DNA of 64,000 nucleotides. It comes from Alphaproteobacteria bacterium (GTDB lineage: Bacteria > Pseudomonadota > Alphaproteobacteria > Bin95). Positions 1 through 31,203 of the stretch are shown here, piece after piece. Position 1 is the stretch's first letter. Every line of letters begins with the position of its first letter. The notes beneath the pieces were generated by a model. It was given only the letters and a program-made list of their open reading frames with translations, searched no databases and was not told the origin of the DNA. Both the position numbers and the translations under genes were made by a program. The DNA is taken from positions 32,001-96,000 of the forward strand of contig CBDBGH010000001.1 of NCBI GenBank assembly GCA_965205265.1, read 5' to 3'.

Positions 1-452
1 TTGGCAACCAGCGCACTCAAACGCGCCGTATTCGGCTGGATTACCCGGTTCGCCAGGAACCACGCCGTCATTCGGGTGTCAAGGGTCGAAACCTGTGGTG
101 CGTCCGGCAACGCCTCCACAACAAGCCAGTCCAGAAAGGCCGTCGACTTTTCCGCGCCGAGCCGGCCAAGCTTCAGAAACGTTTCAACGGCACGTCGATA
201 ACGGCGGTCTGAACGCTCGGGTACATGCGAAGGTAACGGACCCTCATACGCAATCCGCTCTCCCGGAAACTGCCCAACCGCATCCGGAACTGGATCAGCC
301 AATCCGGGGAACCGGGCATGACGCTGAAAGAACTTCAGATAGTACCCAAGCACCAAGCGCCGCCGGGGCGACAGACCCTCAAGCAGCCGCAGTTCCTGGG
401 ACGTCAACACCCAATGCGCCCTAAGCGCTTCCGCCGACCAAAGCTGCTCCAT
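1..452 (-). CDS. tnpA: Tn3-family transposase, 5' part (DUF4158-like N-terminus), runs off the window
   Basis: Not in the ORF track; translated by hand from ATG at 452: MEQLWSAEALRAHWVLTSQELRLLEGLSPRRRLVLGYYLKFFQRHARFP...RRYRRAVETFLKL...FLDWLVVEALP, typical of the Tn3 TnpA N-terminal domain. Confidence 0.75.
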   Translation of the reverse strand, partial: MEQLWSAEALRAHWVLTSQELRLLEGLSPRRRLVLGYYLKFFQRHARFPGLADPVPDAVGQFPGERIAYEGPLPSHVPERSDRRYRRAVETFLKLGRLGAEKSTAFLDWLVVEALPDAPQVSTLDTRMTAWFLANRVIQPNTARLSALVA

Positions 453-465
453 ATATCCCCCAATA

Positions 466-503
466 CCTCAATATGCTGATCGCGCGGCACGACCGGCGGC
501 CCC
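466..503 (-). repeat. Putative 38-bp Tn3-family terminal inverted repeat
   Basis: Minus strand reads GGGGCCGCCGGTCGTGCCGCGCGATCAGCATATTGAGG (38 bp, GGGG start), just upstream of tnpA and exactly where the methyltransferase fragment is cut. Confidence 0.6.
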
Positions 504-775
504 GGCGCCGCGTTCTGGACCCGTTCTGTGGAACCGCGACAACGGCCCTGAGCGCCGCGTACCATGGACATGAGGGGATAACGACAGACATCAATCCGTT
601 CCTGGTGTGGTTTGGTGGCGTGAAGACAGCGCGGTACTCCGGCGCTGCGATAGCTTCCACGCGCGACGCAGGCGCCCGGGTGATGGAGGCGGTCGGGCGC
701 GGCACATTCGATCCTGTCGAGCCACCTCCCATCCATAACATCGATAGATGGTGGTGTCAGGAGGCGCTGGAGTCC
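504..775 (+). pseudogene. DNA methyltransferase (N4/N6 type) internal fragment
   Basis: VLDPFCGTATT (FxGxG motif I) and TDINPFLVWF; cut at the 5' end by the Tn3 end and diverging after RWWCQEALES. Confidence 0.7.
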
Positions 776-1113
776 TGTGCAGGGCCGATCATCCGTGCGC
801 CTGCACCGTACAGCCCCGTTCATGACAGATCGGCAGCGGGCCAGGAAGCCCAACCGATCGATCCCGCTGGACGCCTTGCGCCCCTGCTGCTATCGCTTTG
901 GGCAGTACATTTCTGTACTTCCCTTTTTGTCGCTGACTGCATGGCCGAGAATGTGCGTAAAGGGGACTGGGACTTCGAACGATGACCGAATATGATCGCA
1001 AGAAGATGATGGAACTGAACAGAAAGCGAACGCGAATTGCCGGATACGTCGGGTGGTGAAGTCGCGGCGTTCCCTTAGGGTTGATGGCATTTACGGATAA
1101 AGGAATTCACCGG

Positions 1114-1317
1114 ATGTCGGCAGTGACAAACAATCCTCTTTCTCCTCTGGTTTCGGAGTTCGATTCAGTTGAGCAGGAGGCCAGCTACAACGAATGGCTA
1201 CGCGCCAAGGTTGCCGCCAGTCTGGCTGACACCCGCCCGGCGCTCCCTCATGACGCGGTGATGGCTGAAATGGACGCTCTGATCGACCGGATCGCCGCAG
1301 AAAATCCTGAGCGCTGA
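1114..1317 (+). CDS. Type II antitoxin (PaaA2/RelB-ParD-like)
   Basis: SPLVSEFDSVEQEASYNEWLRAKVAASLAD..PHDAVM; RBS AAGGA; TGATG overlap with the toxin gene. Confidence 0.85.
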   Translation: MSAVTNNPLSPLVSEFDSVEQEASYNEWLRAKVAASLADTRPALPHDAVMAEMDALIDRIAAENPER

Positions 1318-1598
1318 TGCTCCCAATTTTCTGGCGGGAGACGGCCCGCAGCGATTTGCGCCAAATCGTGACCTACATTGCCAACGAGGATCCGCACGCT
1401 GCCCGTCGCATGAAAATTCGACTGGAAGCAGTAGTGCTTCCTTTGTCAGAGCACCCCTACCTGTATCGTCGGAGTGATCGCGTTCCGGGCCTGCGCGAGA
1501 TCGTGGCTCATCCGAATTACATCGTGTTATATCGGGTTGCCGCTGATTGCATCGAAGTCGTGAATGTGGTCCACGCGCGCCAGCCGTTCCCCAAATAA
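1317..1598 (+). CDS. RelE/ParE-family toxin
   Basis: 93 aa, ARSDLRQIVTYIA...GLREIVAHPNYIVLYRV...VVNVVHARQ. Confidence 0.9.
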   Translation: MLPIFWRETARSDLRQIVTYIANEDPHAARRMKIRLEAVVLPLSEHPYLYRRSDRVPGLREIVAHPNYIVLYRVAADCIEVVNVVHARQPFPK

Positions 1599-1639
1599 AA
1601 GAGGATTACATACCTAACTTACCTAACTTGACAACATAT

Positions 1640-3028
1640 CCCCACTTCCAGTCCGAAGTGCAACACCGGCCATTTTCCCCGCCCGGGCGGGGAAAATGGC
1701 CGGAAGGCGGGATTCCCGGCCCCCTGGCGCCGGTGATTCCGGGCCCGGGACGGCTGGAGTCCCTTCGCGGGAGAGCCTATCGGCGCTTTCCGGGCAGCGC
1801 AAGGCCGCCGCCGGGGCGGGTCGCGTCCGTCCGGGCGCAGGGAGGGCGCAGCCCGACCGGAGCCCGGACGGACGCGACGTCGAAATCCTGTCCACCCCCT
1901 TCCGGCGCAGCCATCCGCGCCGTCTGGAGGCGGGCGGGCCGCGTCAGGGTGGGCGGGCCCGGCGGAACACCTCGGCGGGCGTCCGGTAGCCGAGCACCCT
2001 GCGCGGTCGCGCGTTCAGGCGGTCCTGCACCGCTTTCACCTCCGCGTCGGTGACCGCCCGCAGGTCCGTCCCCTTCGGCAGGTACTGCCGGACCAGCCCG
2101 TTGGTGTGCCCGGTCGGGCCCCGCTCCCAGGAGTGCTGGGGGGTCGGGAGGAAGAACCCGGCCTTCAGCGCCTCCGCCACGCCGGCGTGGCCCGCGAACT
2201 CCCTGCCGTTGTCCGCCGTGACCGTGTGGACGGCGACGGCGGACGGCGGCGGCATCGCCAGCATCGCGGCGGAGACCGCAGCCGAGGTGCGCCGGTCAAC
2301 CCTCTGGAGAAACGTGTATTTCGAGGCGCGGTCCACAAGGGAGACCACCGCCCCGCTGTGGCCTTTCCCGATGATCGTGTCCGCCTCCCGGTCGCCCACA
2401 CGCTCCCTGCTCTCCACCTCCGCAGGCCTCTCCGAGATGTCCACCCGGCCCGGGATGTGGCCCCGGCCGGAGTGCCGCCCGCCCCTCCAGTTGGGCTTTT
2501 TCCCGCGGCGGCGCAGCAGCGGGAACAGCCCGCCGCCCGCCTTCCTGTCGGCCTTCAGGTGCTCGTATATCCACTGCCGGCCCACCGCCCAGCCGCCCTC
2601 CAGCCGCAGCCGTCCCGCGATCCGCTCCGGGCTCCAGCCCTCCTCCAGAAACCCCTCGACACTCGCCCAGCGCTCCGCAGTCATCCTCCGGGGGACCCTG
2701 GACGCCGCGCTGCGGCGCTCCTCCGCTTTCCCCTGCGCCTCGCCGGGGCTGTAGCCCGAATCCCCGCCGTTCCGGCGCAGCTCCCGCCAGACCGACGGGC
2801 GGTCACGGCCCAGACGGGCCGCGATCACCCCGTCCGACAGCCCGCTTTCCTTCAGCGCGCCGATCTGGCATCTATCCTCATGGGTCAGGTGGCGCTGGCC
2901 CTCGGGCATGACAGTCTCCTATGCGTCGTTGCTGGGACTGTCGCCGCTTCCTGGCCGATCCGCAACATCATGCGGCAGGAAAACCGGTCACCACCGCCAC
3001 TGGTGTTGCACTTCGGACTGGAATGGGG
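1640..3028 (-). mobile_element. IS30-family insertion sequence
   Basis: 22-bp identical inverted repeat core TTCCAGTCCGAAGTGCAACACC at 1646-1667 and 3002-3023, enclosing an IS30 transposase. Confidence 0.9.
1944..2909 (-). pseudogene. IS30 transposase, ORF open but degenerate
   Basis: HLTHEDR..IAARLGR..VWRELRRN, GDREADTIIG, TVTADNGREF, HSWERGPTGHTNGLVRQYLPKG; the catalytic E of the NENTNG motif appears replaced by G. Confidence 0.8.
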
Positions 3029-3031
3029 CTA

Positions 3032-3508
3032 TCATATAAGGAAATTGACGCCCATATATTGATTGATTCGACACAACATGTGGTGTTTGCCAACTTCAGT
3101 GTGTAATCCCCTAAAAATAAGGGGTGGAGCGGACCAGCGGCCGCTGGCGGCCCGTCGTGGTCTGCGGGAACGGTCGCACACAGACGCTCGGGAACGGCGA
3201 TCCGCGGCGGCGTCGGAGAAATTCCCGATGACCACGCTGCCCTGGGGGAAACGCGCGGCAATGTCCAGCCTGCCGCCCATCGCCTCGATGCAGGAGCGAA
3301 GGTTCGACACGTACATGTCGGCCCGCCGTTCCAGCTTTGCGACAGCCGGCTGGTTCACGTCCATCTCCTCGCCAACGGACTTCCGGGTCATGGCCCGGGC
3401 CTGCCGCAGCTCGTGAAGCAGCATGGCCGCGCGAAGATCCCCTTTCCGCGCCCGACCCGCGGGAGACAGTTCCTCCGTCAGCCGCGCGAAAGGATGGTGT
3501 CCCGCCAT
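3032..3508 (-). CDS. higA: HigA-like XRE antitoxin (degenerate, natural stop probably lost near 3190)
   Basis: LHELRQARAMTRK..VNQPAVAKLERRADMYVSNLRSCIEAMGGRLDIAARFP; directly downstream of higB. Confidence 0.8.
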   Translation of the reverse strand: MAGHHPFARLTEELSPAGRARKGDLRAAMLLHELRQARAMTRKSVGEEMDVNQPAVAKLERRADMYVSNLRSCIEAMGGRLDIAARFPQGSVVIGNFSDAAADRRSRASVCDRSRRPRRAASGRWSAPPLIFRGLHTEVGKHHMLCRINQYMGVNFLI

Positions 3509-3867
3509 CAGATCGCTCCTTCTTCCCTGAGTTCCTCGAGATGTACATCATAGAGCCGGTCCGCAAGCGGCACGAACCGCCTGTGGAACAAATCATCTCC
3601 TGTCCTGTCGCCGCCGGTCAGCGGAACTGCCGTGCGTCTGGGATCAAAGGCGTGGAACACGCGAATGGGCTTTCCGCCGCCCTGAACGCGAAGCTCCCGC
3701 ATGTGACCGCGCCGCGAACCCTTTATCCCCGAGCATTGGGGATACGGCAGTCCGGGCCCCTGCTCTCCAGGCAGATCCACCACTGCGGAAACGTCCTCCC
3801 GTTCGCTTGCCGCGGGCGTCTCCCACCAGTCCCCGAACTCGTTCGTATATTCGACGCTCCAGACCAT
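3508..3867 (-). CDS. higB: HigB/RelE-like (Gp49) toxin, degenerate
   Basis: WSVEYTNEFGDWW...GPGLPYP...HMRELRVQ..PIRVFHAFDPRRTAVPLTGGDRTG. Confidence 0.85.
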   Translation of the reverse strand: MVWSVEYTNEFGDWWETPAASEREDVSAVVDLPGEQGPGLPYPQCSGIKGSRRGHMRELRVQGGGKPIRVFHAFDPRRTAVPLTGGDRTGDDLFHRRFVPLADRLYDVHLEELREEGAI

Positions 3868-3968
3868 GACCCATGGTGTTCCGTCGATGGAATGCCATCA
3901 GGTCACAAAACGACATCCAGGCGCGAACCGGACCTCGGGTCGAGTGCCGGAAGGGGCGAAAGACCCCG

Positions 3969-4121
3969 TCAAGGACTTGCCCGATGCCGTGTCATGATTC
4001 CAGGCACGGTGTTACTGCTGATTCCGGGGTCGTGCGCGATCCATCGGTAGCTCCGGCCCTCCCCGACGGACCGGATGACCTTCGCCGCGAGCCTGTCCGA
4101 TTTCGGTCCCCGCCCACGACC
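3969..4121 (-). pseudogene. Serine recombinase/resolvase C-terminal HTH remnant
   Basis: LGRGRGPKSDRLAAKVIRSVGEGRSYRWIAHDPGISSNTV; cut by the IS end at 4122. Confidence 0.65.
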
Positions 4122-6513
4122 CAATGGCATTCGGATAAGTTTTTCTGGCGTTCGGACAGGAAAGCCCCCGCGCTTCGGGCATCTGCCGGAAGCCGGGGGC
4201 GCTGTCGGTAACCGGCCCTGTGTCGGGCCTGTTTCATGCGGCGGGTCGGGCCTGCCAGCCACCTGCTCCTGGGTTGCTTCGACTCCCGGGGGTGGCTCCT
4301 TCCGGGCCTTTCGCGCTGGATGCGGCGTGACAGCCCGGCCATGATCCTGGCGACGGATTCCCTGACCGCTCCGGCCTGCGGCGGGAACAGGGCCCCGGTC
4401 CCCTTTCCGACGGGGCGCAGGCCGTTCCTGAAACTGGTGCGCATGGCGGGCAGGCCCTCCTCCCCGCCGCCGCCGGTGGGGTCGCTGTCGCAGCGGTCGG
4501 GGAACTGGCGTGTCAGGGTGAGCGGGGTGAACGCCGCGTATATCTCCTGGCGGACGCCACGCTCCGATCTGGCGCGCAGATCCCCGATCACCCGCTTCCC
4601 GCTTCTGTACATCCCCTCCACGCCCCACCGTCCGTGATGGAGGTCGACGGGGGGCTGGATTCCATATCGGTCGCTGTCCGGAAGCGAGGTGGCGAGGCGG
4701 TATTCGGTGTCCCCGGCGGTGTACCTGACGAGGCGAACGCGGAGTGTCCGGCCGCGAAGGGCGGCTTCGTCCCCTGGTGCGCTGACCGTGACGGTCCGGT
4801 CGGCCACGCCCGATGCGATGAAGCCGTCGAAGGTCGGGTTGGCCCCCCGCTTGATACGGAAGACGAAGTGCAGCCCGCGCTCCGCATGGGCCAGCGCCAT
4901 GGGGAGGGAGTGGTATCCCCTGTCGTAGACGATGACGTCGCCTTCGGCCGCGTGGCCAGGGTGCGTGAGGGCGGCCTGCCGTTCGTTCCCGTGGCCGGAC
5001 AGGTCGAGGTCAACAGGTGTCCTGTCGCGGAGCCGGTGGAGGACGACGGGCATGCCCTGGGGATGGTGGGCACCGTCCGCGATGCGGTAGCCGCGGTCCG
5101 CGAGTTCCCCCGGCAGGGTGAGCTCCGGGCCGTCGACGGCCAGGACCCTGTGGCCCTTCCAGAGGGTGGCGTCGGGACCCCGGGCGAGGACCTCCCGGTG
5201 CAGCCGCCTGAACGCGGCCCCGTCGAGCTTCCCGCGCGCCTCGCAGGCCGTGGATGCCGCCGGGGGCCCGTCCTGCGGCAGGTCGACGCCCGCCGCCGCG
5301 CACTCCTCCCATAGCCCGCACAGCGTGGTGCGGTAGCCCTGGCCGCCAGGCGTGACGGTGAGGCGGAACACGAACGGCATGACGGGCAGGCTGCCGACAC
5401 CCGCCTCCGCCATCGGGCGTCCCCGCGCTCCGCGACAGCCGTGGCGGCCGAACCGGCGGTCCGAGGCGGCGGAGCGCCCCCTCTCCGCCCGCGTCGGCGA
5501 TCCGTCATCCTCCCCGCGCAGGATCCCGCGGGCATTCCCGCGCAGCGGCATCAGGTGGACGCCCTTCACGGTCCTGCCTCCGGTCCCGCCGGTCTCCCCG
5601 ATGTGCCTCCAGCCCGCGCCCCGATGGCACGAGGCCCTGAACCGGGTCCCGTCCACGAATGTCCCGCACATCACCGGACGCCAGCCGTGGAGGCGCTCCC
5701 AGTCGTCCGCGAGCTGCCGCACCGCCAGGGCCAGCGCCGGGGACGCCAGGAACTTCGAGCGCACCCAGGGGAACACGGGGTAGCGCGGGTTCACCACCAT
5801 CAGGTGGCGGTTGCGGTCCCGGCACGGAAGCGTCCTCCTCACCGCCTCGAAGAGCAGGCACCCCAGCCTGCGGCCGTCCCGGTCGGTGAGGAGGTAGCGG
5901 ACGTGCGCCCCGAAGGGGCGCCTGTAACCCAGATGGTGGTGGCGGTCGACGGGCGCGTTCCAGAGCCGCCTGCCCTCCGTGTCCGTCACGGGCTCCAGGC
6001 CCAGCGGCCGGAGATCGCGGAGCCGCGCCGCGACCTCCGGCTGCGGGTCGGAGGCGGAGGTCCAGGCCGGCCTGCCGGCGGCCCTCATGTCGCGGACGCT
6101 CCCCTCCCGCCTCGCCGGCAGCCTGGGGATGCCGTGGCTCTCCAGGGTCCCGGCATGCCGAGGCAGGCCCCGACCCTGCAGGCACCCTTCGCCGTCGTCC
6201 AGCCAAGGTGCCCGCGGATGGTCCTCCCCAGCCCGTTGCGGCTGTCGTTGGGCAGCAGCGCCACGGTCTCCTGGATGTCGGCGGTCCGCCGCCGGGTCAG
6301 GCGGCGGCCGGAGAAGGTGGTCGATCTCAGGTCGGTGATTCGCCGGTCCATGGCCGGTTCCCGTATCTGCCCGACACCAGCATACGAACCAGCGTCCGCC
6401 TGTCAGTGGGTCTGGCGAAAAAAATCTGGAACACCGAAAACCACGCCATGTCAACGGCTTGCGACCGGCAGGGAAAACCGCTCAGGAACGTAAGGGCTAT
6501 CCGAATACCATTG
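4122..6513 (-). mobile_element. IS4-like element encoding a DUF4338 (DruA-like)-DDE transposase fusion, copy 1, frameshifted
   Basis: IRs CAATGGCATTCGGATA (4122-4137) and CAATGGTATTCGGATA on the minus strand (6498-6513); start at 6351; LWNAPVDRHHHLGY..RLGCLLF..LASPALALAVRQLADDW (DUF4338), then VLAVDG, VIVYDRGY, HGRWGVEGMYR (IS4 DDE). Confidence 0.8.
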
Positions 6514-6649
6514 GCTGGGTGGCCGGGGCGTTTCCACGAGCCAAAGTGTGGCGGAATGCCGCAGTGGGTGGCTGGTCGGGCGCCGTCCGCGCATGGCTGG
6601 CTGCGCCGTCCCCTCCGGGGCGGCGTCCGCGGCGTCCGGTGCTGCCTGA

Positions 6650-7862
6650 ACCGGCGGTGCCGGATGGTGAGCCGCATCAGCTGCCCGCCGGTCAGGGCCA
6701 GCACGCCAAAGAACAGGTGGCAGGCCACCCTGGCGTGCCCACGGACACGGACGTGCCGGGCGCCGTACGGGTCCTTCAGGGCGGAGTTCACCCGCCCGCC
6801 GCTGGAGCGCTGCCGGTAACGCACGCGGTCGTGGCGTATGTGGCCCGCCTTCCGCTGCGCCAGAGCCTCTTTCCTGAGGCGCTCCCTCAGGGCCGCATCG
6901 CGGCGGGGGTTGGTGTCGGTGATCGCCACGCGCCCCGTCAGGCAGGCGTGGAACCCGATCCCCGGGGAATCACAGGCCGCGTCCATGAGCTGGTGGCAGT
7001 GGTCCACCCGCCGCGCCGTCATCCTCGAAAGAGGGATGGCGGCCTGGCTGTCGTGCAGCGAAGCGGAGGTCAGGATGCGGCTGATGGGGATGTCCCCATC
7101 AGCCGCGTCGATATGGAGCCTGTACCCCCTCCAGCTCTCCCTGTACCCCTTCGAGTTGCGCTTCGTGCCGGTGTCGCAGGCCTTCGGAAGCTCGCCAGCC
7201 ATCTCCGTGGCGGTCATCCCGTCCGGCGGCCGCCGCTCCAGCCGGGTCGGCTCCTTCGGCCTCTCCTACCCCTTGTTTCGGGCGTCCGCGCTTTCGCTTT
7301 GGCCTCTCCTCCGGCTTCGGCTTCGGCGCCAGCCTCTCCCGCCCGACGACCGAGCCGGCGTACGCGGAGCGGCCCGGCGCCTCGTGCATCCGCTCGGGCA
7401 GCCGGATCTCCGCGAACCAGGGGAGGGCGCGGGAGAAGGCCGGTTCGCCGGGAACCTCCGACACGCGGGACCAGCCGCAGAGCCTGCGCAGCGTCGGGTC
7501 GTACAGCAGCCGGTCGACCGGCACCACCGTGGTCGGCATGTCCCACACCGCCTTCGCGACGAAGGCCCGAGCCAGCGCCCTGCGGTCGGCGGGAGGGTTG
7601 CCGACGCCCCGGTGGCTGTAGTGCACGTGCCTCACGCCCAGCGGGCCGACCTCCCCGGCGAGGGAAGGCAGAAGTTCCCCCTGGAACCGCTGCCAGGCAT
7701 CCGGTATGGATGATCGCAGGGAAATGGAGCCGTCTCCCTGCATGTTGTGGTATTGACACCTGCTTCATACCAGAGGGATGGCTCCATATCCATACCAGCC
7801 ATCAGAAAAAACGCCCGTTTCCGAAAAAAATCGCTTGATCGGGAAGTTCTGCAAGAAGCTCA
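6650..7862 (-). mobile_element. IS5/IS1182-like element remnant, frameshifted transposase
   Basis: PPADRRALARAFVAKAVW..LRRLCGW..PGEPAFSRA (7099-7743) and KRNSKGYRESWRGYRLHID..TSASLHDSQAAIPL..VRGHARVACHLFFGVLAL; IS-end-like TTCTGCAAGAAGCTC near 7846-7861; far end not resolved. Confidence 0.7.
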
Positions 7863-7880
7863 TATGATCAAAAGATACGG

Positions 7881-9462
7881 GTAACTGCTCGCCCCTTCAT
7901 CCCTGACCGTCCCGCCTGACGGCTTTCGGGCCGGGCATCCTGTCCCGTCATCCGCGCCCGTCCGCCGTCGGCCATCCCTGGGCCTGGCATAATGGAGCTG
8001 CCCGCTGCACTGTCCATCCGTCCGGGCGAATCACGGCGGAGGCGGCGATCATGGTGGTGGAGGCGGAGCGGTGCCGACGGTGAACGCAGCCTCGCTGCGC
8101 GCGCGGCTGGACGGTTGCCGGGCCCGGTTCGATGCGATCAGGCGGAAGGGCGGGGCGGGCGCGGACACCCCTGCGCCGGTCAAGGCCCTTTTCCTGCCGC
8201 CCGGCGTCCTGGTGGCCGTGCCGCTGGAGCGGACGACCCGCAGGACCGACGCCAGCTCCAGCATCCCCCCGTGGCGGACGGAGAGGGACGGGACCGCCCG
8301 GCGCACCGGAAGGGACGGCGGCCGGGGCGCGGAACCGAACCTGCGGACCGGCACGGACATGGGCGGGACCACCGTCGGGGAGACGGTCGCCGTCGATGCC
8401 TGCGGCGCCGACCTCCCGTGGGTCGCCCCCGCCGGACGCGGGCGGCGCGTCCCGTCCGGCATCGTCCCCGAGGCCGGCGGGCGCCGCGTGGAGGCCGGGG
8501 CCAGGGAATGCCCGGACCGCCGGGCCCGGACCAGGGGGCGGTTCCCCGACGGCATGCCGGGCCCGCTGCGGTACGGCACGGGCCTCCAGGCATTCACGAC
8601 CAGCCTGCCGGGCGCCCACATGCTGTCCCCGCCCCGGGCCGTGGGAGGAGGCCGCCGTCGCGCGGCTGCCGGAACGCCCGGCCCTGCACGCCGACGGGAC
8701 CGGATTCCGGGTCGACGGCAGGAGGCGGTGGCTCCATGTCCCCACCGACGGGTCCCTGACCCTGAAGCGCCCGCACCGCAGGCGCGGATGCGGGGCGATC
8801 GGGGACATCGGCGTCATCCCCCGCCACACCGGCACGCCGGTCCACGACTGCTGGGCGGGCCACCTCACCCACCACCGGTGTACGCACCGGCCCTGTGGCT
8901 CCCATATCCTCCGCGAACTGACGTCCGTCGTGGAATCCAACGGCTTCCGCCGGGCGCGCCTGATGAAAAGGCCGCCGCGCGGGGCCTGCCACGGGGCCAG
9001 CCGAAGCGACACCAAGGTCCCGCCCGAGGCCGGACGCCTGGCCGCGCGCAGGCGTTGCCGGACCATCCCTGCACAGGGCCGCAGGGAGCTGCCGGAGATC
9101 CCGCCGCGTCCGAAGGGAAAGCGCGGGAGGGTCGCGGGATCCGACGCGCACAGCCTCCACGGCCGCCTCGGGAGGCACGGGGGGTCCGTGCCGCGCTTCA
9201 TGGCCGACCCGGACGTCAGCTTCACCGACAACGCCGGCGGGCGGAAAATCCGCATGGCCAGGGTGAGGATCAAGGTGTCAGGCCGCTTCCGGACACAGCT
9301 CCATGCCGGGGCATGGTGCCGGATCTCCAGCTACCCCAGCCCGATGGCCGCCCTCGGTTACAACCCACCCGTCGCCATCCAGACCGCCCTGGCCGGAAAC
9401 GCAGCCGCCATGGCCAGACTGCACAATGCCCGGTCCGCACCCAGAAAGGGGTGAGCAGTTAC
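7881..9462 (+). mobile_element. IS66-family element (single-ORF type), degenerate and frameshifted
   Basis: IRs GTAACTGCTCGCCCCTT and AAGGGGTGAGCAGTTAC; 8-bp target duplication AGATACGG at 7873-7880 and 9463-9470; LHADGTGFRVDG..WLHV, VHDCW, FTDNAGGRKIRMARVRIKVSGRFR. Confidence 0.9.
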
Positions 9463-9600
9463 AGATACGGAACCGACAAATCAAGCCTGTCTGGACAAAC
9501 GACAAAAACTCACAAATTTGTCGTGCACCCCACTAGAGAGGCTGAGTTGACAATCAAGTTTCTGCACGCGAATGTAGTCAAATTATCCAGGAGATCGGAT

Positions 9601-10716
9601 TTGCGCGTCGTTGGCATAAAGACTTATCCACTGACGGTTCCTACTGGTGACCTGCAGCGCACTTCCCAGGGCTCATTCGGCACCATTTCGATTCTGGTCG
9701 TCATTGTTGAAACCGACGCGGGAGTCACTGGCGTCGGCGAGGCTCTCGCGCGCCAAGGCCCCACCGCCTACGCTGCTTTGATCGACAACCTTTTGGCGCC
9801 GAAGGTGCTTGGCGCAGATCCGTTCGCCGTCGCTGGCATCTGGAAAACACTGTTCCGATCGTTCACCGGTCGTTCCGGCGGGGTCCTCATCGAAGCGATT
9901 GCCGCTATCGACATGGCCATGTGGGACATCATGGGCAAGGAGACCGGTCGGCCCGTTTACGAACTGCTTGGCCATATGGGCAGGGAGCGCCTTAGAGCCT
10001 ATGCTTCGTCGATCCCATGGGTCGATGACGGCGGCGCAGCTCGTGTCGTTGAGACATGCCTCGAGGCTGGGTTCAGGGAGATGAAGGTCAAGATCGGGGC
10101 TCCGGCGGAAGCAGCGTTGGCGCGTGCACGCCTTGTCCGTGAGCTCGCCGGCCCGGACATTGGCCTAATGGCAGACGGCAACTGGATTTTCGACGTCGAT
10201 GAGGCATTGCAAGTCGGACGAGGTTTGGCAGAGCTCGGATATATCTGGTTTGAAGAGCCCATCGTGCCGGAAGATATGGAAGGATACCGCTACTTGCGGA
10301 ACCGATTGCCGATCAGGCTGGCAGCAGGAGAAAGCGAACACACCGCGGCAGGCGCTGCGCCGCTGCTGGCGGCGCGATTGGTCGGAGTGGTTCAGCCAGA
10401 TGTCGCCCGCTCAGGCGGGATCACCGAAACGCGTAAGATAGCGCTTCTGGCGGATTCGATGCACATCCGCTACGCGCCCCATGTCGGTGCGTCCGGCGCC
10501 ATATGTGCCGCCGCAAGTCTGCATCTGGCGGCGGCCATGCCGAATTTCTGGACCTACGAATGCATGGAGTTTCCCAACCCGCTGCGGGATGCGCTTCTGG
10601 CGTCGCCGGTTCCGGGCCCCGATGACATCGAGGACGGAACGCTGCCGCTGCCTTCAGGGCCTGGGCTGGGAATTGAACTCAACATGGCAGAGGTGGAGAA
10701 ATGGACGAATGCGTAG
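9601..10716 (+). CDS. Mandelate racemase/muconate lactonizing enzyme family protein
   Basis: TTG start with RBS AGGAGA; VETDAGVTGVGE, AIDMAMWDIMGK, KVKIG, MADGN, WFEEP, AAGESE, QPDV..GGITE, GPGLGIEL. Confidence 0.9.
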   Translation: MRVVGIKTYPLTVPTGDLQRTSQGSFGTISILVVIVETDAGVTGVGEALARQGPTAYAALIDNLLAPKVLGADPFAVAGIWKTLFRSFTGRSGGVLIEAIAAIDMAMWDIMGKETGRPVYELLGHMGRERLRAYASSIPWVDDGGAARVVETCLEAGFREMKVKIGAPAEAALARARLVRELAGPDIGLMADGNWIFDVDEALQVGRGLAELGYIWFEEPIVPEDMEGYRYLRNRLPIRLAAGESEHTAAGAAPLLAARLVGVVQPDVARSGGITETRKIALLADSMHIRYAPHVGASGAICAAASLHLAAAMPNFWTYECMEFPNPLRDALLASPVPGPDDIEDGTLPLPSGPGLGIELNMAEVEKWTNA

Positions 10717-11538
10717 GCAATACGACGCTGCTTGGCCGCCTTAGCAGAGGCTATTACGAGTTCAGCGTGCCCGAACGGCGTGTTGCCGATTTCGTGCTCG
10801 AGGATCCTTCGAGCATTCCGCGCAAGAACCTTGCAACGATCACCGAGGGCGCAGGAGTCATCGAGCCGACGGTTCTGCGCTTTTGCTGCTCGATCGGCTT
10901 AGATGGTTACGCTCATTGCAAGGTCGAACTCGCTGCGGCACTTACCGCTAGCGGAGCCGCCTGCGTTCATCGCGACGTGTCCATTGATGATGACAAAGCC
11001 ACCGTTCGGACAAAGCTGACCCAGTCGTCGGTCAATGCCTTGACACGCCTGCAGGAGTCCATCGACGACGCAGCAGCCACCGAGGCTGTTGATCGCATTT
11101 CTGATGCACTGCGCGTTCAGCTGTTTGCAGTCAGGCCTCGGCGGTGTACTCGCCCTCGATGCCCAACGGAAGTTCATGCGCCGGGACTTAGTCTGCGAAT
11201 CCCAGCACGACGCCCAATTGCAAACCATGGCGTCAGTAACGCTTGGGCCCGGAGACGTCGTGCAGGCTCTTTCCTACAACGGGCGAATAAAGGACGTCCT
11301 ACGCACGGTGACGACCGCACGCGAGTCCAGTGCTTTCGTCATTGCAGTCGCGCTGCCCGGATCACCCGCCACGAAAGCACCCGATCTAGTGATCGCGGTC
11401 GATCCACCCGAAGACATCTTTTTATATGCACTGATGACATCGCACTTGTCTCAACTGGTCGCAATCGACCGTTTGACGACGTTCGTGGCGGTGCGCCGAG
11501 GACCAGCCATCGTTCCCAGGCTCGAGCGCATCAAGTAA
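10701..11538 (+). pseudogene. RpiR/MurR-family regulator (HTH + SIS), frameshifted near 11133
   Basis: PERRVADFVLEDP..GVIEPTVLRFC; the SIS half ALDAQRKF..GDVVQALSYNG is in another frame. Confidence 0.8.
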
Positions 11539-11645
11539 TCCCTGAGCGATCAGTGGATCGCGGAGCGTGGCCATTCGAGGCAGCGACCTCGATCGGAATC
11601 ACCCGCGAACGAAGGACCTTCTGATAGGTCACAATGGAGGAAATC

Positions 11646-12926
11646 ATGAGACTAGTATCGCTAACACTCTCTGTCGCCGCCGGGATATTGGCCCTTTCGC
11701 CCAACGATTCGGCTACTGCCCAGGACAAGCCGGAGAAGCTCACCATCATTTCACACCGTGTGCACCAGACGGTCGCGACCGGTGCCCAGGGCGGCGACAT
11801 TACAGCGGCCTGGCGTGAGGCGAACGGTGTCGACGTGGAGTGGGTGACGCTGGGAACAGGGCCACTCCATGAGCGGCTGTTCCGCGAGCTCGAACTTCCT
11901 GAGACGAGCATCGACATCGCGTTTCTCTTGAACACCCGAGCCGTGGCGAGCGTAACGTCGGCGCTGGAGCCCCTGAATGCACATCAGGCTGCAAACCCGA
12001 TCGAGAACATTGACGACGTTTTCCCGGGACTGAGGGCAGCCATGACATTCGGCGGCACGATGTTTGGCGTGCCCTTCCGCCATGCGTCGAGTTGCTTCCA
12101 CTACAACAAGCGCATCCTCGAAGAGCGTGGAATCGATGTTCCCACGACGATCGAGGAATTCGCTGAAGCGGCGCGCGCCGCGACCTACGAGGTAGATGGC
12201 AGCAAGGTGCATGGTTTTGTCATTAACGGTCAGGGATATGCCAACGTCGTCGACCTAGCGCGAGCCTGGGACGGTGACTTCGTCACCCTCGACTACAAGG
12301 TCAAGACGACAGACACCGGCATGATGAATGCCGCCAACCTATTGCGATCGTTCTACGAAAAGGGCGTTTTGCCCAAGAACTGGGCGGCGATCTCCAACGA
12401 AGAGAACAATACGTGGATGCAGACCGGTCGATCGGCCATGACGATCACTTCGTGCGGGCGCAACCGCCTGTACAACGATCCCGAGAAATCGCAGGAGACC
12501 GGCAACATCGTCACAGTTGCGCTGCCCGTCAGCGAGGACTTCCTGGGCGCCTTCGACGTGGCTCCCGCCAAGGTCGAGTTCTGGACGATTGTTATCCCGA
12601 AAAACTCGCGAAACAAGGAGTTCGCCTGGGATTTGGTCAAGACGATGCTCTCGGAAGAAAGCACGTTGATGGCCGCTTTGAACGGTAACGGTCCGGTGCG
12701 AGCATCGACGTATGATCGGCCGGAGATGAAGGACAAGCTCTCCTACGCTGATGAGGAAAAGGCGGTCCTGCTCGTAGGGCGCGTTCCGTTGCCACCGTTC
12801 GAGAATTCCGCTCGCGCCACGGATGTCTTCGTCGAAGAGATCCAGGCCGCTGTTCTGGGTCTGAAGCCTGTCGACGAGGCGATGGCGGAGATTGACAGGC
12901 GCGTAACGCCGTTGCTGCCGCAGTAG
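11646..12926 (+). CDS. ABC transporter substrate-binding protein (CUT1 type)
   Basis: RBS GGAGG, signal peptide, FHYNKRILEERGI.VPTTIEEF, first gene of an ABC cluster. Confidence 0.9.
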   Translation: MRLVSLTLSVAAGILALSPNDSATAQDKPEKLTIISHRVHQTVATGAQGGDITAAWREANGVDVEWVTLGTGPLHERLFRELELPETSIDIAFLLNTRAVASVTSALEPLNAHQAANPIENIDDVFPGLRAAMTFGGTMFGVPFRHASSCFHYNKRILEERGIDVPTTIEEFAEAARAATYEVDGSKVHGFVINGQGYANVVDLARAWDGDFVTLDYKVKTTDTGMMNAANLLRSFYEKGVLPKNWAAISNEENNTWMQTGRSAMTITSCGRNRLYNDPEKSQETGNIVTVALPVSEDFLGAFDVAPAKVEFWTIVIPKNSRNKEFAWDLVKTMLSEESTLMAALNGNGPVRASTYDRPEMKDKLSYADEEKAVLLVGRVPLPPFENSARATDVFVEEIQAAVLGLKPVDEAMAEIDRRVTPLLPQ

Positions 12927-13010
12927 ATCGAAATGGGCTGCGGGGTGGCGACCGCGCCATCCCGCGGCGTTGCCAAACTAGATTCAGCCTAACCGAAGGA
13001 ACGATCGCCG

Positions 13011-13880
13011 ATGCGACTCAGCCTGGTTCACGTTCTCCTCGTGGCGCCGGTGCTCTTGCTGTTGATCCTCGTGATCGGCGTACCTTCTATTTACGTGCTG
13101 TGGCTCAGTCTGCAGAAGACCGCCTTCGGTCAGGAGCCGCAGTTTGTCGGCCTCGCCAACTATTACAGCGTTCTGTCCGACCGCTATTTCTGGCGGGCAT
13201 TTCTCAACACGTTCGTTGTCGTCAACATCGTTGTCTATGTGGAGATTACCGCCGCCATCGGCATGGCGTCATTGTTCGCCAGCGGCGCGCCTTTCCGGCG
13301 CATGATGATCTCGCTGGTCATCGCGCCCTACGCGGCCAGTGAGGTCGTGGCGGTCGTGATCTGGAAGTACATGTTCGAACCTGACATTGGACTCGTGTCG
13401 GCCCTGATGACATTCCTCGGTTTGCCAGAATTGACCTGGACCACCGATCGGTGGGCGGCACTCGGGCTAGTGGCGTTGCTCAGTATATGGATGAATCTGC
13501 CGTTCAGTTTCCTGATACTTTACTCCGCGAGATTAGGCTTGCCGAAAGAACTGTACGAGGCTGCCACCATCGACGGCGCAACACCCTGGGATCATTTTCG
13601 GCGCATAACCCTGCCGCTGCTCATGCCGGCGATACTGGTCGCCCTGTTGTTTCGCTATGTATTTGCGTTTCGATTGTTCGCAGAGGTTTGGCTTCTGACG
13701 GGAGGCGGCCCAGCGCGACAGACGGAAGTGCTTGCCATCTACCTGTACCGCCACGCCTTCAGCTACCAGGAGTTTGGCGTCGCCTCGGCCATCGGCTGGC
13801 TGATGGTGATCGGAACGCTGCTGATCGCGTCGGGCTATCTGCGCACCATGTACAAACGGATGCTTACCAGCGATGCGTAA
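13011..13880 (+). CDS. Carbohydrate ABC permease
   Basis: FVGLANY; LYEAATIDGA..FRRITLPLL EAA motif. Confidence 0.92.
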   Translation: MRLSLVHVLLVAPVLLLLILVIGVPSIYVLWLSLQKTAFGQEPQFVGLANYYSVLSDRYFWRAFLNTFVVVNIVVYVEITAAIGMASLFASGAPFRRMMISLVIAPYAASEVVAVVIWKYMFEPDIGLVSALMTFLGLPELTWTTDRWAALGLVALLSIWMNLPFSFLILYSARLGLPKELYEAATIDGATPWDHFRRITLPLLMPAILVALLFRYVFAFRLFAEVWLLTGGGPARQTEVLAIYLYRHAFSYQEFGVASAIGWLMVIGTLLIASGYLRTMYKRMLTSDA

Positions 13881-14706
13881 CCGCAATTCCGCTCTCCGGT
13901 TGCTGAAGGGATTGGCCTATCTGGCGATAGCCCTTTGGTCGGGTGCACCGATTGCACTCCTGGTGCTCTCGTCGCTCAAGCCGCCACGTGACATACTCTC
14001 TTTTCCGCCGACCATCATCTTTACGCCCACACTCGACAATTACCGAGCATTGATTTCCCGCTGGCCGGGATTCTTCGACGCAATGTGGAACAGCTTGATC
14101 ATTACGGTCGGCGCGACCGTCGTCACGGTCATCACGACGACGATGGCCGGCTACGTCTACGCCCGCGTGCGCACCCGGGCCACGGCCATCTCGTCGTTCT
14201 TCATGATCCTCATCCGCATGATCCCGCCGATCGTCATCTCGCTACCGCTCTTTCCGTTGGTCAACATTTTGAGGCTGTCTGACACGCACATCGTCCTCAT
14301 TATCCTCTACGCGACATTCTTCGTCTCACTGAACACGTGGATAATGAAAGCGTTCATCGACCAGATACCGTTGGAGTTGGAAGAGGCGGCGACAGCAGAC
14401 GGTGCAACGCTGCGCCAAGTCCTGCGCCACATCATCGTACCGCTCTCTGCTCAGGGCATGATCGCAGCCTCGACATTCGTTCTCATCTTCTCGTGGAACG
14501 AGTTCCTGTTCGCTTTCATTTTCACGACCACGAACGCCAAGACCGCTCCGATCGTAATCAGCGAGATGGTTGGTGCCATCGACGGCGTCGACTGGGGCAT
14601 TCTGTTCGCGGCGGCGACAGTTCAGCTCGTGCCGATCCTGGTCTTCGTGATAGCTGTGCAGAAATACGTAATCGCCGGCCTCACGGCCGGATCGCTGAAA
14701 GGTTGA
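13873..14706 (+). CDS. Carbohydrate ABC permease
   Basis: IPLELEEAATADGA, FSWNEFLFA, GLTAGSLKG. Confidence 0.92.
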   Translation: MRNRNSALRLLKGLAYLAIALWSGAPIALLVLSSLKPPRDILSFPPTIIFTPTLDNYRALISRWPGFFDAMWNSLIITVGATVVTVITTTMAGYVYARVRTRATAISSFFMILIRMIPPIVISLPLFPLVNILRLSDTHIVLIILYATFFVSLNTWIMKAFIDQIPLELEEAATADGATLRQVLRHIIVPLSAQGMIAASTFVLIFSWNEFLFAFIFTTTNAKTAPIVISEMVGAIDGVDWGILFAAATVQLVPILVFVIAVQKYVIAGLTAGSLKG

Positions 14707-14722
14707 ATAAGGGAGACACGCG

Positions 14723-15580
14723 TTGAATGATTTCCAGATGGCGCTTTTGCGAGCGGATCCGAAGTTATCACGATTCAGCCCGTTGCAACGGATCATATAT
14801 TTTGACGACTTCGACACCGGTTACAACGGGTGGACGGCCCTTATCGGTAATTATGAGGATGATATCGGCAATATGCACCCTGGGTATAGGCAGCTGACAT
14901 TGCCGATGCTCTCCAATCTATCGTTCTGGGACGCCGGTGCGCATGGCAGTTTTGACGGTAGCTATGCTCTCAAGATCGCAAGCCGGGCCAGGGCCGGTAC
15001 GCAAAACGTGGCGATCAAGCGCATCACCTTCATCAAACCCTGCCCGATCCAGATCGAGTTCTTCTTCACTTTTAAACCTGAGGCAAGCGCTGCGCAGTTG
15101 CTCGATACCGACCTGCGTTCGGTTGGGATTCTTCTGGACCTGCAAGATGACCGACATCGGGTCATGCCCCACCTGCGATACCTCAACGCCTATGAGGGAG
15201 AACGCGTCGAGCGCTGGCAGTTTAAGGAGAAGCGGGTTCCGGTGAAACGCTTCAGCGACAAAACCGTCACCCACTATCACCTAGCGGACCGGGACTGGAA
15301 GCATCTGGGATCCGAACGCCAGGTACTCTGCTACAACGAGATTCCGACCAAGGTGAACTGGCAGTATGCGCGGCTGAAGTTCGACCTGCGCACGATGCGC
15401 TATCTTGAGTTCCAATGTAACGACGTGAGCTACGATGTCGGCGATCTCGGTTCGCTAACTCTCCCCGCCATGCCGAACTTGCGAGGGATGTTCAACGTCG
15501 CCTTCTTTGTAGAGAGCGACGCGGACCGCCGCTCCAGCCTCTATGTGGATTCAGTTCTGGTTTCGGGAGATTGGGAATAA
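14723..15580 (+). CDS. Conserved hypothetical protein (probably DUF6772-like)
   Basis: 285-aa clean ORF, RBS GGGAG, inside the operon; family name from recall only. Confidence 0.7.
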   Translation: MNDFQMALLRADPKLSRFSPLQRIIYFDDFDTGYNGWTALIGNYEDDIGNMHPGYRQLTLPMLSNLSFWDAGAHGSFDGSYALKIASRARAGTQNVAIKRITFIKPCPIQIEFFFTFKPEASAAQLLDTDLRSVGILLDLQDDRHRVMPHLRYLNAYEGERVERWQFKEKRVPVKRFSDKTVTHYHLADRDWKHLGSERQVLCYNEIPTKVNWQYARLKFDLRTMRYLEFQCNDVSYDVGDLGSLTLPAMPNLRGMFNVAFFVESDADRRSSLYVDSVLVSGDWE

Positions 15581-15912
15581 TGCCCGCGCTTCGAGAAAGC
15601 TATACGGCGGTCGTGGCACGCGCCGAGACAATCACCAATGGATACGCGACGGAAGCTTACGAGGCCGGTTGGGCCAAGGAAGCTGTCGTGTTCGCCCAGA
15701 ATGTCGAGGTCGGTGCCGCCACCGTACTGCACGTGCAGATCTCGGCCGATGGGATGAACTGGCTGGATGAGGGAAGTCGCCTCGAGATCGCGGCCGACGC
15801 GTCGGGAGAGTTTGCACGCGTCAGTCATTTCGGAAACTGGCTGCGGTTGCGTGCCGAGGTGCCGGACAATGGCAAAAGGCGCCTGACCCTAACGGTTCAT
15901 TTTAAAGCGTAA
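15580..15912 (+). CDS. Small hypothetical beta-rich protein (probably DUF6385-like)
   Basis: TAATG coupling to the previous gene; ATEAYEAGWA, VQISADGMNWLDEG, VSHFGNWLRL. Confidence 0.7.
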   Translation: MPALRESYTAVVARAETITNGYATEAYEAGWAKEAVVFAQNVEVGAATVLHVQISADGMNWLDEGSRLEIAADASGEFARVSHFGNWLRLRAEVPDNGKRRLTLTVHFKA

Positions 15913-15953
15913 GCGTCTTGCGGGATCGGAGCGGCGAAGGGAACAAGTAAACA

Positions 15954-17006: not shown

Positions 17007-17055
17007 CATGACGTGCATCTTCGAACATTCCAGACGCACCCCGGGGGAGTCCTAA

Positions 17056-18429: not shown

Positions 18430-18442
18430 GGTTCCTGCAGAG

Positions 18443-18752
18443 ATGCCTATCGAGACCCGTTCCAACATCATTGAATTCTCTACCGGTCAGCACCGCGCTG
18501 ACTTCCTGTGTGTCTCGGGCAAGTCGGTCAGCGCACCGCATATCGACCGGCTGACCTGCGAGCGGACACGTTTCACCGCCCGCATCACCGCAAGCCCAGC
18601 CTATCGGCCGTCACGGGCATCGCTTATGATGGGCATGCCGCCCCTTTCCCATGGTATCCGCGACAGCGGCATCGACCCGCACATGTCGAAACACGGATTT
18701 GCTGCACTGTTGGCCGATGCCTGCAACCAAACAGTCTTTGTCGGTGGCGCGG
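18443..18752 (+). pseudogene. Second sulfatase, 5' fragment
   Basis: SNIIEFSTGQHRAD..APHIDRL..PAYRPSRASLMMG (catalytic Cys lost), truncated. Confidence 0.7.
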
Positions 18753-20815: not shown

Positions 20816-21167
20816 CTCGCTTGCAGTTGTTCCAAAACGTGTCGGACATCTAAGCAAAGGACATCAGCAAATGCCAGTCCGTTCACCGAGCTTCATACCA
20901 CCATTTCGACCGCCGATAGTTTCCGCAGAAATTCAAATGGAATTCGCCGGTGAACCTGCAATAAGCTGAGTGTTGTGGCGGCGACAGTGTTGCACTTCGT
21001 GCGTGCGATCGGATTGACGCTACGATGATCGATGTAGGTACAACAGCCAGGGCGATTCGCTTAGAGCCTTGCGAGATTGAGCGCACCAAGATGGCAAAGG
21101 ACGACAACTCGGATTCACGAGTGACCAAGAACGCCGCCCGCAGAACTGCGCACGGTGGAATTGCGAT

Positions 21168-29903: not shown

Positions 29904-30033
29904 GGAAAACGGTACCATCTGTCTGCCCTCCCGAAGCGCCCGTGCCGGCCGGTCATCCATAGCGGAAAATCCGCCGGGGAGCAACCGCGGGGCGCCGCGG
30001 CGGCCGAACCTCAGATGACGGTCAGGGGCGGTG

Positions 30034-30977: not shown

Positions 30978-31203
30978 TCCGGAGAACCACCAGCCACCTC
31001 CTCCTTTCGTTCCTGATTCTCTGAACATACGAGGCCAACGCGCCGGAAAACCCGTCAAGTCAGCCCATGTCGGCAATCCTGCGGGACTTTCGGGACCTCT
31101 GTCGGGATGGACCCGTCGCTGTCGGACACCGACCGGGCGGGCGGACCGTCAGGAAAGGTTGCGGATGTGTCCCGCCGTGGTGTAGGAGGAATGCCTGTCC
31201 GCT

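Follow-up and report, generated by a model that had tools for sequence, protein, structure and literature searches.

A Graveyard of Mobile and Addiction Genes on a Mosaic Plasmid

The 64,000-nucleotide stretch of DNA analyzed in this work (the window) spans bases 32001-96000 of plasmid C1 of an alphaproteobacterial genome (the source genome, G000), a mosaic replicon of 193,076 bp and 65.7% GC that coexists with a 5.46-Mb chromosome (68.2% GC) and a 43-kb contig. Window positions 1944-9462 contain the remains of five mobile or addiction genes that are now dead, i.e. an IS30-family transposase, a higBA toxin-antitoxin pair, a DUF4338-IS4 transposase, an IS5-like transposase and an IS66-family transposase, and at least three of these relics have decayed in one direction, by A:T>G:C transitions. 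The IS30, IS66 and IS4 relics are family members by full-length homology, with identities of 87% (IS30), up to 92% among all homologs (IS66) and up to 73% (IS4), and their catalytic domains score weakly or not at all against Pfam, as expected of dead members. A whole-genome comparison revealed no intact copy of any relic elsewhere in the source genome.

The IS30-family relic (1944-2909, minus strand) retains a full open frame of 321 codons and has no indel block with respect to its family, its 87% identity being to a 321-amino-acid homolog present on 27 contigs. Only its helix-turn-helix domains are matched by Pfam (34 and 31 bits); the integrase core was not detected, and in the catalytic region GDWEAD has become GDREAD and LNE has become PTG. 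The first of these replacements had been read from the bare sequence in an earlier annotation of this DNA (the original prediction), together with VFHAFD and AVPLTGGDR in place of VFYAFD and AILLIGGDK and with LHADGT in place of LHADET, and alignment confirmed each of them. The higA-like antitoxin relic (HTH_37, 27.8 bits; 3032-3508, minus strand), aligned with the same-genus copies L002-L004, carries a 12-base deletion and a run-on C terminus, and the higB-like (Gp49) toxin relic (35 bits; 3508-3867, minus strand) differs from intact same-genus copies by Y>H, L>P, I>T and K>R replacements. The DUF4338(DruA)-IS4 relic (3992-6454, minus strand) is a single 820-codon frame that scores 52.6 bits for DDE_Tnp_1 and 49.9 bits for DruA; its homologs, of about 728 amino acids, are 60-73% identical to it, and it shows 8 insertion and 7 deletion blocks relative to the family. 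The IS5-like relic (6327-7743, minus strand), which was aligned to intact multi-copy elements of the same genus, consists of an N-terminal frame (7099-7743) and a C-terminal frame (6327-7217) with internal deletions, and scores 31.7 bits for DDE_Tnp_1 and 19.6 bits, under the cut-off, for DUF772. Finally, the IS66-family relic (8071-9454, plus strand; DDE_Tnp_IS66, 43.6 bits) has an N-terminal frame from position 8071 and a C-terminal frame at 8132-9454, the switch between them probably lying near 8640, and the intact family, of about 492 amino acids, is 60-70% identical to it. A second copy of the 5' part of the IS4 relic and its adjoining DNA lies at 23784-25148 (plus strand); this twin of 5189-6527 is 98% identical to it and gives the same DruA match.

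Measured in 1-kb steps, the GC content of the window was 0.56-0.63 in the backbone and rose to 0.67-0.77 in the greater part of the 2-9 kb, 23-31 kb and 33-39 kb intervals. GC at third codon positions (GC3) was 0.80-0.92 in the relics, about 0.87 in chromosomal genes and 0.59-0.77 in backbone genes. Because the relics resemble the chromosome in GC3 and the backbone lies lower, the contrast between mobile and backbone DNA mostly reflects different origins within a mosaic plasmid rather than decay. GC content was dropped as a marker of decay since TraA and DnaB, which are intact, are equally GC-rich. That the backbone genes look normal, as had been claimed, was borne out by Pfam for the TraA relaxase (AAA_30, 188 bits; MobA_MobL, 165 bits), for DnaB (DnaB_C, 328 bits) and, on short profiles, for ParE (58 bits) and PaaA2 (69 bits), whose genes adjoin the relics, all of them scored as intact; the ABC genes and parAB were judged by composition and k-mers alone.

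Decay of at Least Three Relics Is Directional

Substitutions in the window relics were polarized at the codon level, the window codons being compared with columns conserved in at least 70% of intact-looking homologs (IS30, IS66 and DUF4338-IS4 sets). In the pooled IS66, IS4 and IS30 relics, 115 changes at conserved codons were A:T>G:C and 9 were G:C>A:T. The in-frame C-terminal part of the IS66 relic showed 52 differences in 217 columns, of which 44 were A>G or T>C and none was G>A or C>T. The corresponding values were 61 versus 8 for the IS4 relic (148 differences in 544 columns, the remainder comprising 23 G<>C, 7 A:T>C:G, 7 A<>T, 31 multi-step and 11 ambiguous differences) and 10 versus 1 for the IS30 relic (26 differences in 211 columns). 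These data showed that decay by A:T>G:C transitions is directional in at least three of the five relics. That all five elements are full of such changes was confirmed for IS66, IS4 and IS30, and the skews of higBA and the IS5-like element were weak (see below); that nearly all changes are A>G or T>C was true of IS66 (85%) and overstated for IS4 (41%) and IS30 (38%).

The same direction was apparent in the pooled residues. E>G had occurred at 25 of 60 conserved positions versus D>G at 3 of 46, K>R at 16 of 33 versus N>S at 3 of 23, and Q>R at 6 of 23 versus H>R at 2 of 35; L>P affected 23 of 99 and Y>H 10 of 28. Reverse changes were rare (G>E/D/S, 0/79; P>L, 0/49; R>K/Q/H/W/C, 4/124). Because these transitions cannot create stop codons, long frames stay open while function is lost.

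When each of 41 other IS66 homologs was tested likewise, A:T>G:C-type changes numbered 1-13 and G:C>A:T-type changes 1-21, and intact IS4 homologs gave ratios such as 7:28, 6:32 and 4:2. Ordinary IS66 and IS4 members are thus balanced (about 1:1) or AT-ward, unlike the relics. Decayed copies with the skew of the relics were found in other genomes, both for IS66 (P0217, 97:1; P0196, 47:5; P0213, 33:3; P0204, 28:5) and for IS4 (P0312, 83:3; P0309, 64:5; P0298, 60:3; P0286, 59:1).

In higBA, compared with two agreeing intact same-genus copies, 45 of 133 differences were A:T>G:C and 26 were G:C>A:T, an unpolarized skew that cannot be polarized because the same-genus reference lineages themselves drift AT-ward. 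The same-genus copy L004 (G013:C2, about 1500-1975) is a higBA broken by the loss of about 78 bases and by a stop codon in place of W; among its replacements are L>P, D>G, Y>H and V>A, yet at the DNA level it lacks an A:T>G:C excess (25 versus 30). The IS5-like relic, whose references belong to a different subfamily and are too distant, gave 49 A:T>G:C versus 29 G:C>A:T among 252 DNA differences, with G<>C transversions leading (101 of 252), and a weak skew of 22 versus 13 among 124 amino acid differences. Paralog pairs within plasmids showed about as many transitions as transversions, and no consistent direction was found in them.

As a non-mobile control, the SAM-methyltransferase gene at 27870-28655 had no A:T>G:C and one G:C>A:T change over the 43 conserved columns available. 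As single-copy controls, the pseudogenes of rpiR and of C5-methylases are apparently of too recent origin to be informative. The former (10701-11538, plus strand) is an RpiR-type regulator split by one frameshift that leaves the helix-turn-helix part and the SIS part in separate frames, and shows neither a GC rise nor depletion of the motif CNAG introduced below. The C5-cytosine methylase pseudogenes, at 40933-42045 of the window (minus strand) and at G000:C1:95948-96805, have one internal stop each (TAG and TGA, respectively), keep Pfam scores of 210 and 182 bits, and look like young single-copy pseudogenes; an HNH endonuclease frame follows the second of them.

The Transitions Prefer a Four-base Context That Leaves a Reference-free Signature

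According to the original prediction, many of the changes lie in a 5'-CT/AG context. The changed A was followed by G in 85 of the 115 events (74%) versus 183 of 555 unmutated A/T sites (33%; p=9e-16), and C stood at position -2 in 62 events (54%) versus 182 unmutated sites (33%). The combination, 5'-CNAG (on the other strand, T in 5'-CTNG), accounted for 44 of 115 events versus 51 of 555 unmutated sites (p=3e-13), which upheld the proposed context and sharpened it to CNAG. Changes in the observed context produce E>G, K>R, Q>R, L>P, Y>H and W>R replacements.

In agreement with this preference, the whole relic block (1944-9462) is a CNAG-depleted tract with 179 CNAG and an observed/expected ratio (o/e) of 0.65 (Poisson P=3.5e-10), which ends where the low-GC backbone starts; CNGG and GNAG in the block reach 1.13 and 1.19. 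The o/e of CNAG in the five relics ranged from 0.56 to 0.78, with 0.56 in IS66 (CNGG, 1.19) and 0.65 in both the IS5-like element and higB. The control values were 0.94 for TraA, 1.10 for DnaB, 0.98 for the backbone at 9600-22900, 0.98-0.99 for the chromosome and 1.07-1.20 for active chromosomal IS families. A 2-kb scan of plasmid C1 gave a CNAG/CNGG index of 0.45-0.69 over 30-41 kb and of 0.98-1.3 from 41 kb (window position 9 kb) onward, and the low-GC genes next to the relic block do not carry the CNAG signature.

An IS30 Family Decaying within a Single Rhodobacter Genome

A replicate at the DNA level was provided by the IS30 family of a Rhodobacter metagenome-assembled genome (MAG), G053, whose copies are here those among the matches listed in a scan of genome contigs; the counts below hold for these. 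The family comprises at least 11 near-identical master copies with a GC content of 0.69 (0.69, 0.52 and 0.87 at the three codon positions) and at least 9 diverged copies, which reach up to 0.745 through codon positions 1 and 2 alone and contain no stops. The diverged copy L069 shows 81 differences from the master consensus, 60 of which are A>G or T>C and 5 of which are G>A or C>T, and the remaining eight resemble it. Altogether 131 unique events were counted, with 78 A:T>G:C, 18 G:C>A:T and 9 A:T>C:G.

The context of these events was that of the window relics. Changed sites amounted to 49 of 125 when the next base was G, 15 of 76 when it was A, 10 of 110 when it was C and 4 of 58 when it was T; CGAG and CCAG had changed at 12 of 16 and 10 of 14 sites and GGAG at 1 of 23. 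Overall, 25 of 35 CNAG sites had changed versus 53 of 334 other A/T sites, i.e. CNAG decayed about 7 times faster. A>G (41) and T>C (37) were about equally frequent and interleaved along the sequence, which points to a process that likely acts on the duplex or on mismatches and not on single strands. A diversity-generating retroelement was considered and rejected, A>G and T>C standing at 41 and 37 versus 4 A>C and 2 A>T, with both strands hit equally.

The decayed copies are, moreover, mosaic. As many as 49% of the informative site pairs failed the four-gamete test, transversion markers were shared in blocks, and adjacent transitions and transversions had the same copy patterns, which indicates that copies exchange segments. 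Gene conversion therefore occurs between IS copies. Taken together, these results showed a process that is duplex-symmetric, transition-only and one-way, that acts in a four-base context and that saturates in dead DNA.

The Pressure Is Genome-wide in at Least Two Genomes

The decay had been likened to a reverse repeat-induced point mutation (RIP), targeted to repeats. This was not supported in the source genome. Its chromosome carries numerous copies of young IS families: a 56-copy family of 1.9 kb and a 14-copy family of 4.1 kb show 99.8-100% identity and together contain 3 variant events, and a third family, with 34 copies of 2.8 kb, spans 88.6-100% identity. All 4 singleton variants seen in the three families were G:C>A:T. 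The twin of the IS4 relic, aligned with it over 1365 columns, showed one substitution and 26 gap columns, so that the decay predates the duplication and has not resumed since. The pattern expected of RIP, duplicated DNA mutated with unique DNA spared, was not seen in this genome; a single transition class with a dinucleotide context on both strands, another trait of RIP, was seen in the window relics and in the G053 copies.

Ordinary DNA of two other genomes also argued against a confinement to repeats. In 100 kb each, the o/e of CNAG was 0.67 in G053 and 0.77 in G054, a second MAG with decayed copies (IS66, IS4 and IS30), and such depletion was absent from ordinary DNA of genome G055 (1.03) and of the main source chromosome (0.98-0.99). 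At four-fold degenerate sites, the frequency of A in CNA|G versus CNA|H was 0.123 versus 0.207 in G053 (p=2.5e-6) and 0.093 versus 0.188 in G054 (p=3.7e-9), and that of T in CT|NG versus other contexts was 0.114 versus 0.219 and 0.137 versus 0.214, respectively. Since ordinary DNA of G053 and G054 is depleted as well, the pressure is genome-wide in at least these two genomes.

The Relics Probably Decayed before the Present Plasmid Arrangement Formed

Near and distant DNA searches of the relic block against a plasmid collection returned nothing close, and tblastn of the IS30 master against plasmids gave matches below 60% identity only. A search for IS30 relatives in 16 genomes of the same genus and 36 of the same order found none. 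In the scan of genome contigs, the IS30 relatives among the matches listed were at most 70% identical, and those at the DNA level belonged to Rhodobacter, Paracoccaceae and Amylibacter MAGs. Copies 92-96% identical to relics and with the same damaging changes lie on a 5.72-Mb contig (P0035, P0168), and the runs of three organisms, each from a separate study, gave contigs that match stretches of the IS4 relic exactly. None of the runs searched (Logan contigs) contained the whole stretch, the best share of block words being 0.64; two sponge-metagenome runs contained 0.11 of the block words, and one of them (X1) carries diverged IS pieces.

Because the relatives lie outside the small order of the host and the low-GC neighbors lack the signature, we infer that decay of the block came first and its arrival in the present arrangement second. 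The relics would have been dead when this plasmid arrangement formed, the decay having probably taken place in or via Rhodobacterales/Paracoccaceae-like hosts, and the source genome would not now be mutating its own repeats.

Candidate Mechanisms

The explanation that we tentatively prefer is a Vsr-like, context-dependent bias in the correction of T:G to C:G, possibly amplified by gene conversion. Nothing would oppose it in dead DNA, whose decay would be older than the plasmid arrangement seen today. Within a short context, T:G (A:C) mispairs would be corrected toward G:C by very-short-patch (VSP) repair, through a putative Vsr-like endonuclease of relaxed specificity, the mispairs arising from replication errors and from heteroduplexes formed in recombination between the many copies of an element. 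The pressure would be genome-wide in host lineages that have the process, masked by purifying selection in working genes and running toward saturation in dead copies, whose decay may be sped up by gene conversion between them.

Of the two mechanisms initially named, a Vsr-like T:G correction and an adenine deaminase, the former fits the context best, the T of T>C changes having a C immediately before it and a G two positions after it. The motif of the Escherichia coli Vsr, CTWGG, has the same two flanks around its T, and it is this match of flanking positions that suggests the link. The expected vsr gene was found in the source genome (PF03852, 109.8 bits) with a C5-methylase gene directly upstream (C3:5272032-5273322). 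In G053, G054 and G055, vsr exceeds the PF03852 cut-off and is solitary (1.5 kb on either side were inspected), and a PF03852 search did not find it in genome G056. The Vsr proteins of G053 and G054 are the closest pair (69% identity), and those of G055 and the source genome are 49-50% identical to that of G053. The solitary Vsr-like VsrA of Caulobacter crescentus is functionally tied to the methylase ScmA (YGCCGGCR; GCCGGC-type) and is proposed to act on T:G mispairs from replication errors, and some Neisseria Vsr enzymes are said there to accept T:G mismatches in degenerate motifs (PMC12907096).

Several observations weigh against a Vsr-like correction. In the comparison of five genomes, vsr presence did not clearly track the signature, since G055 and the source genome have vsr and ordinary DNA that is not CNAG-depleted, and the vsr-less G056, mixed in its overall result, shows the T version of the effect at four-fold sites (0.183 versus 0.326). 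The motif is loose: in the absence of C at -2, a 3' G was still favored in the G053 copies among the matches listed (24/90 versus 16/172), and Y>H (10 of 28 columns) does not fit CTNG. Two of the five relics, the IS5-like element and higBA, show weak skews only. The effect at synonymous sites of G053 and G054 is just about 2-fold versus about 7-fold at CNAG in dead IS30 copies, so that something copy-specific may add to the bias. Furthermore, contigs from the runs of three organisms hold 11238, 1052 and 1268 variant pieces at 88-100% identity, and so many pieces look more like active diversification than slow decay.

This last aspect would also suit an alternative that we regard as unlikely, namely that the donor lineages had a system dedicated to hypermutating mobile or repeated DNA, e.g. 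by adenine deamination in the duplex or in transposition intermediates, which would kill transposases without making stops. It would account for the many variant pieces in the three organisms and for the graded, open-frame copies within single genomes, such as the G053 IS30 copies with 31-81 differences (among the matches listed), the IS66 variants P0168-P0171 and the dozens of distinct IS30 variants on one 6.34-Mb contig. Even IS30 copies within 0.1-0.7% of the master are set apart chiefly by A>G or T>C changes, and per site the bias is stronger in IS copies than at synonymous sites of the same genomes. The recurrence of the same sites across many copies would suit hotspots, but it is equally explained by gene conversion, given that transversions are shared in blocks. 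Against hypermutation stand the untouched 56-copy and 14-copy families and 1.3-kb relic duplicate of the source genome and the same context signature in ordinary DNA of G053 and G054; strand-coordinated clustering was not seen, and we know of no natural adenine deaminase of duplex DNA, although no search aimed at one was made. The specific version in which some alphaproteobacteria (Rhodobacter/Paracoccaceae-like; the organisms of runs X3, X4 and X7) actively hypermutate A:T to G:C in IS copies as a mirror of fungal RIP, the relics being its products, appears marginally less probable still.

Equally doubtful is that no special enzyme is involved and that old, selection-free DNA makes visible a context-dependent replication-error bias or a general GC-ward pressure in the donor genomes, for instance dGTP misinserted opposite T and sealed by the next G (the next-nucleotide effect) or unspecific GC-biased gene conversion. 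High dGTP acting through the next-nucleotide effect would give a dependence on a 3' G, and a 3' G was indeed the strongest single determinant (AG, 49/125; AC, 10/110; AT, 4/58; G053 copies among the matches listed). The genome-wide signature of G053 and G054 and a mild effect of a following G at four-fold sites of the main source chromosome, whatever the -1 or -2 base, are also in line with it. Nevertheless, next-nucleotide kinetics leave unexplained the dependence on C at -2 (CGAG, 12/16, versus GGAG, 1/23), and unspecific gene conversion would favor A:T>C:G too, whereas 78 transitions faced 9 such transversions. The recent mutations in source-genome IS copies, 4 of 4 being G:C>A:T, and the intact mutS and mutL of all five genomes do not agree with this explanation either.

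That there is no decay, the frames encoding divergent working proteins or the differences being assembly or sequencing artifacts, is highly improbable: long open frames do persist (321 and 820 codons) and the long-read MAG assemblies used as replicates could hold systematic errors, but open frames are expected anyway at 70-77% GC because these transitions cannot make stops, the changes strike invariant and catalytic residues (GDWEAD by W>R; LNEHTNG and LHADETG by E>G), Pfam scores have collapsed (integrase core of IS30 undetected; IS66, 43.6 bits), exact IS4 relic stretches recur in the runs of three organisms from three studies, and the differences are copy-specific within genomes, unlike methylation-type basecalling errors.

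A loss of mismatch repair, which the original prediction had listed among its checks, was rejected. Both mutS and mutL are present in the source genome, and MutS_V and MutL_C lie in open frames of 616-942 amino acids in five of five genomes. Endonuclease V was not found in any of the five genomes and does not discriminate.

Comparison with Known Systems

GC-ward, context-specific decay of selection-free DNA recurs in several genomes and IS families. Dcm/Vsr VSP repair, reportedly described by Lieb, by Bhagwat and McClelland in 1992, by Merkl in 1992 and by Glasner in 1995, is said to leave an oligonucleotide imprint in which CTAG is rare and CCWGG in excess. Like E. coli VSP repair, the process proposed here would take T:G to C:G whatever the origin of the mispair, in a fixed context that places C before the T and G two positions after it, and has a genome-wide k-mer signature; VSP repair also acts on recombination heteroduplexes. 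Unlike it, the context is CTNG (and A followed by G generally) instead of CTWGG, the decay of dead genes is near-saturating (25 of 35 CNAG in the G053 IS30 copies among the matches listed), and vsr presence alone does not predict the signature, the role of Vsr being putative.

Fungal RIP, known from Neurospora and other fungi, is triggered by duplication, changes C:G to T:A, enriches AT and makes stops. The decay described here shares with it a transition-only spectrum, a dinucleotide context and many graded inactivated transposon copies, and differs in its opposite direction, the lack of stops and the untouched duplicated DNA of the source genome. GC-biased gene conversion in bacteria and in multigene families was reportedly treated by Lassalle in 2015 and by Galtier in 2003, and a GC rise in recombining or multi-copy DNA irrespective of function, together with mosaic copies, would fit it; unlike its classical form, which favors all weak-to-strong changes, transitions here outnumber A:T>C:G by 78 to 9 (matches listed) and have a four-base context. 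In the spectra of mismatch-repair-deficient E. coli, reportedly obtained by Lee in 2012, A:T>G:C transitions are said to dominate with a hot 5'-NAC context. That context is cold here (AC, 10/110; matches listed), and mutS and mutL are present.

To our knowledge, bacterial mutation is held to be AT-biased everywhere, and how GC-rich genomes are kept so is disputed between selection, biased gene conversion and repair. The selection-free DNA analyzed here moves GC-ward by one class of change in a defined four-base context, and the genomes in which decay is observed under way (G053 and G054) are depleted of this context throughout. Context-dependent T:G to C:G correction is therefore a candidate contributor to GC-richness, of which dead IS copies would be a natural read-out of the spectrum. 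On the practical side, relics with long open frames will be annotated as intact transposases or toxin-antitoxin genes, and the CNAG/CNGG index flags them without a reference. Should the process prove to be directed against mobile DNA, it would represent a new form of genome defense. A search of the full-text literature, with subscription journals outside its scope, brought up no account of bacterial IS copies that hypermutate or decay by A:T>G:C changes.

A close described system is the Caulobacter VsrA/ScmA pair, which likewise includes an alphaproteobacterial Vsr homolog unlinked to its methylase (PMC12907096); GCTGGC contains CTGG, one form of CTNG. In the part available, the VsrA study reports DNA-damage signaling and fitness, not a mutational spectrum or the decay of mobile DNA, and VsrA is described as DUF559-type (PMC12907096), whereas the genes found here match Pfam Vsr PF03852.

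Neighboring Features and Other Replicons

Upstream of the relic block and adjoining it, within the tract of low CNAG/CNGG index, lie the N-terminal fragment of a Tn3-family transposase (window 3-452, minus strand; DUF4158, 32.9 bits versus 164.7 bits for the copy at C1:188852) and a DNA-methylase-like fragment (473-985, plus strand) with no Pfam match. On the chromosome, the region G000:C3:4.75-5.3 Mb has a GC content of 0.66, a GC3 of 0.80 and a median CNAG/CNGG index of 0.76-0.81 versus about 1.0 elsewhere. The dcm-vsr pair lies in this region, as do two more C5-methylase matches, one of them with an internal stop, and the region may be an integrated foreign replicon.

Bases 28300-43206 of contig C2 equal its bases 1-14907 at 100% identity, and bases 1-61 kb of C3 equal 5407-5463 kb; these end repeats look like untrimmed overlaps of circular assemblies, and C2 would then measure about 28.3 kb. 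The segment G000:C2:1-3000 (equal to 28300-31300) is, at 76-80% GC, at the top among the small replicons of the genome; with an o/e of 0.74 for CNAG and just 0.78 for CNGG, its signature differs from that of the relic block. Finally, three Uma2-family frames (putative restriction endonucleases), located at window 31186-33058 and at G000:C1:21657-22424, share 83-86% nucleotide identity and score weakly against Pfam (28-36 bits), and their mutual differences are balanced, with about as many transitions as transversions.

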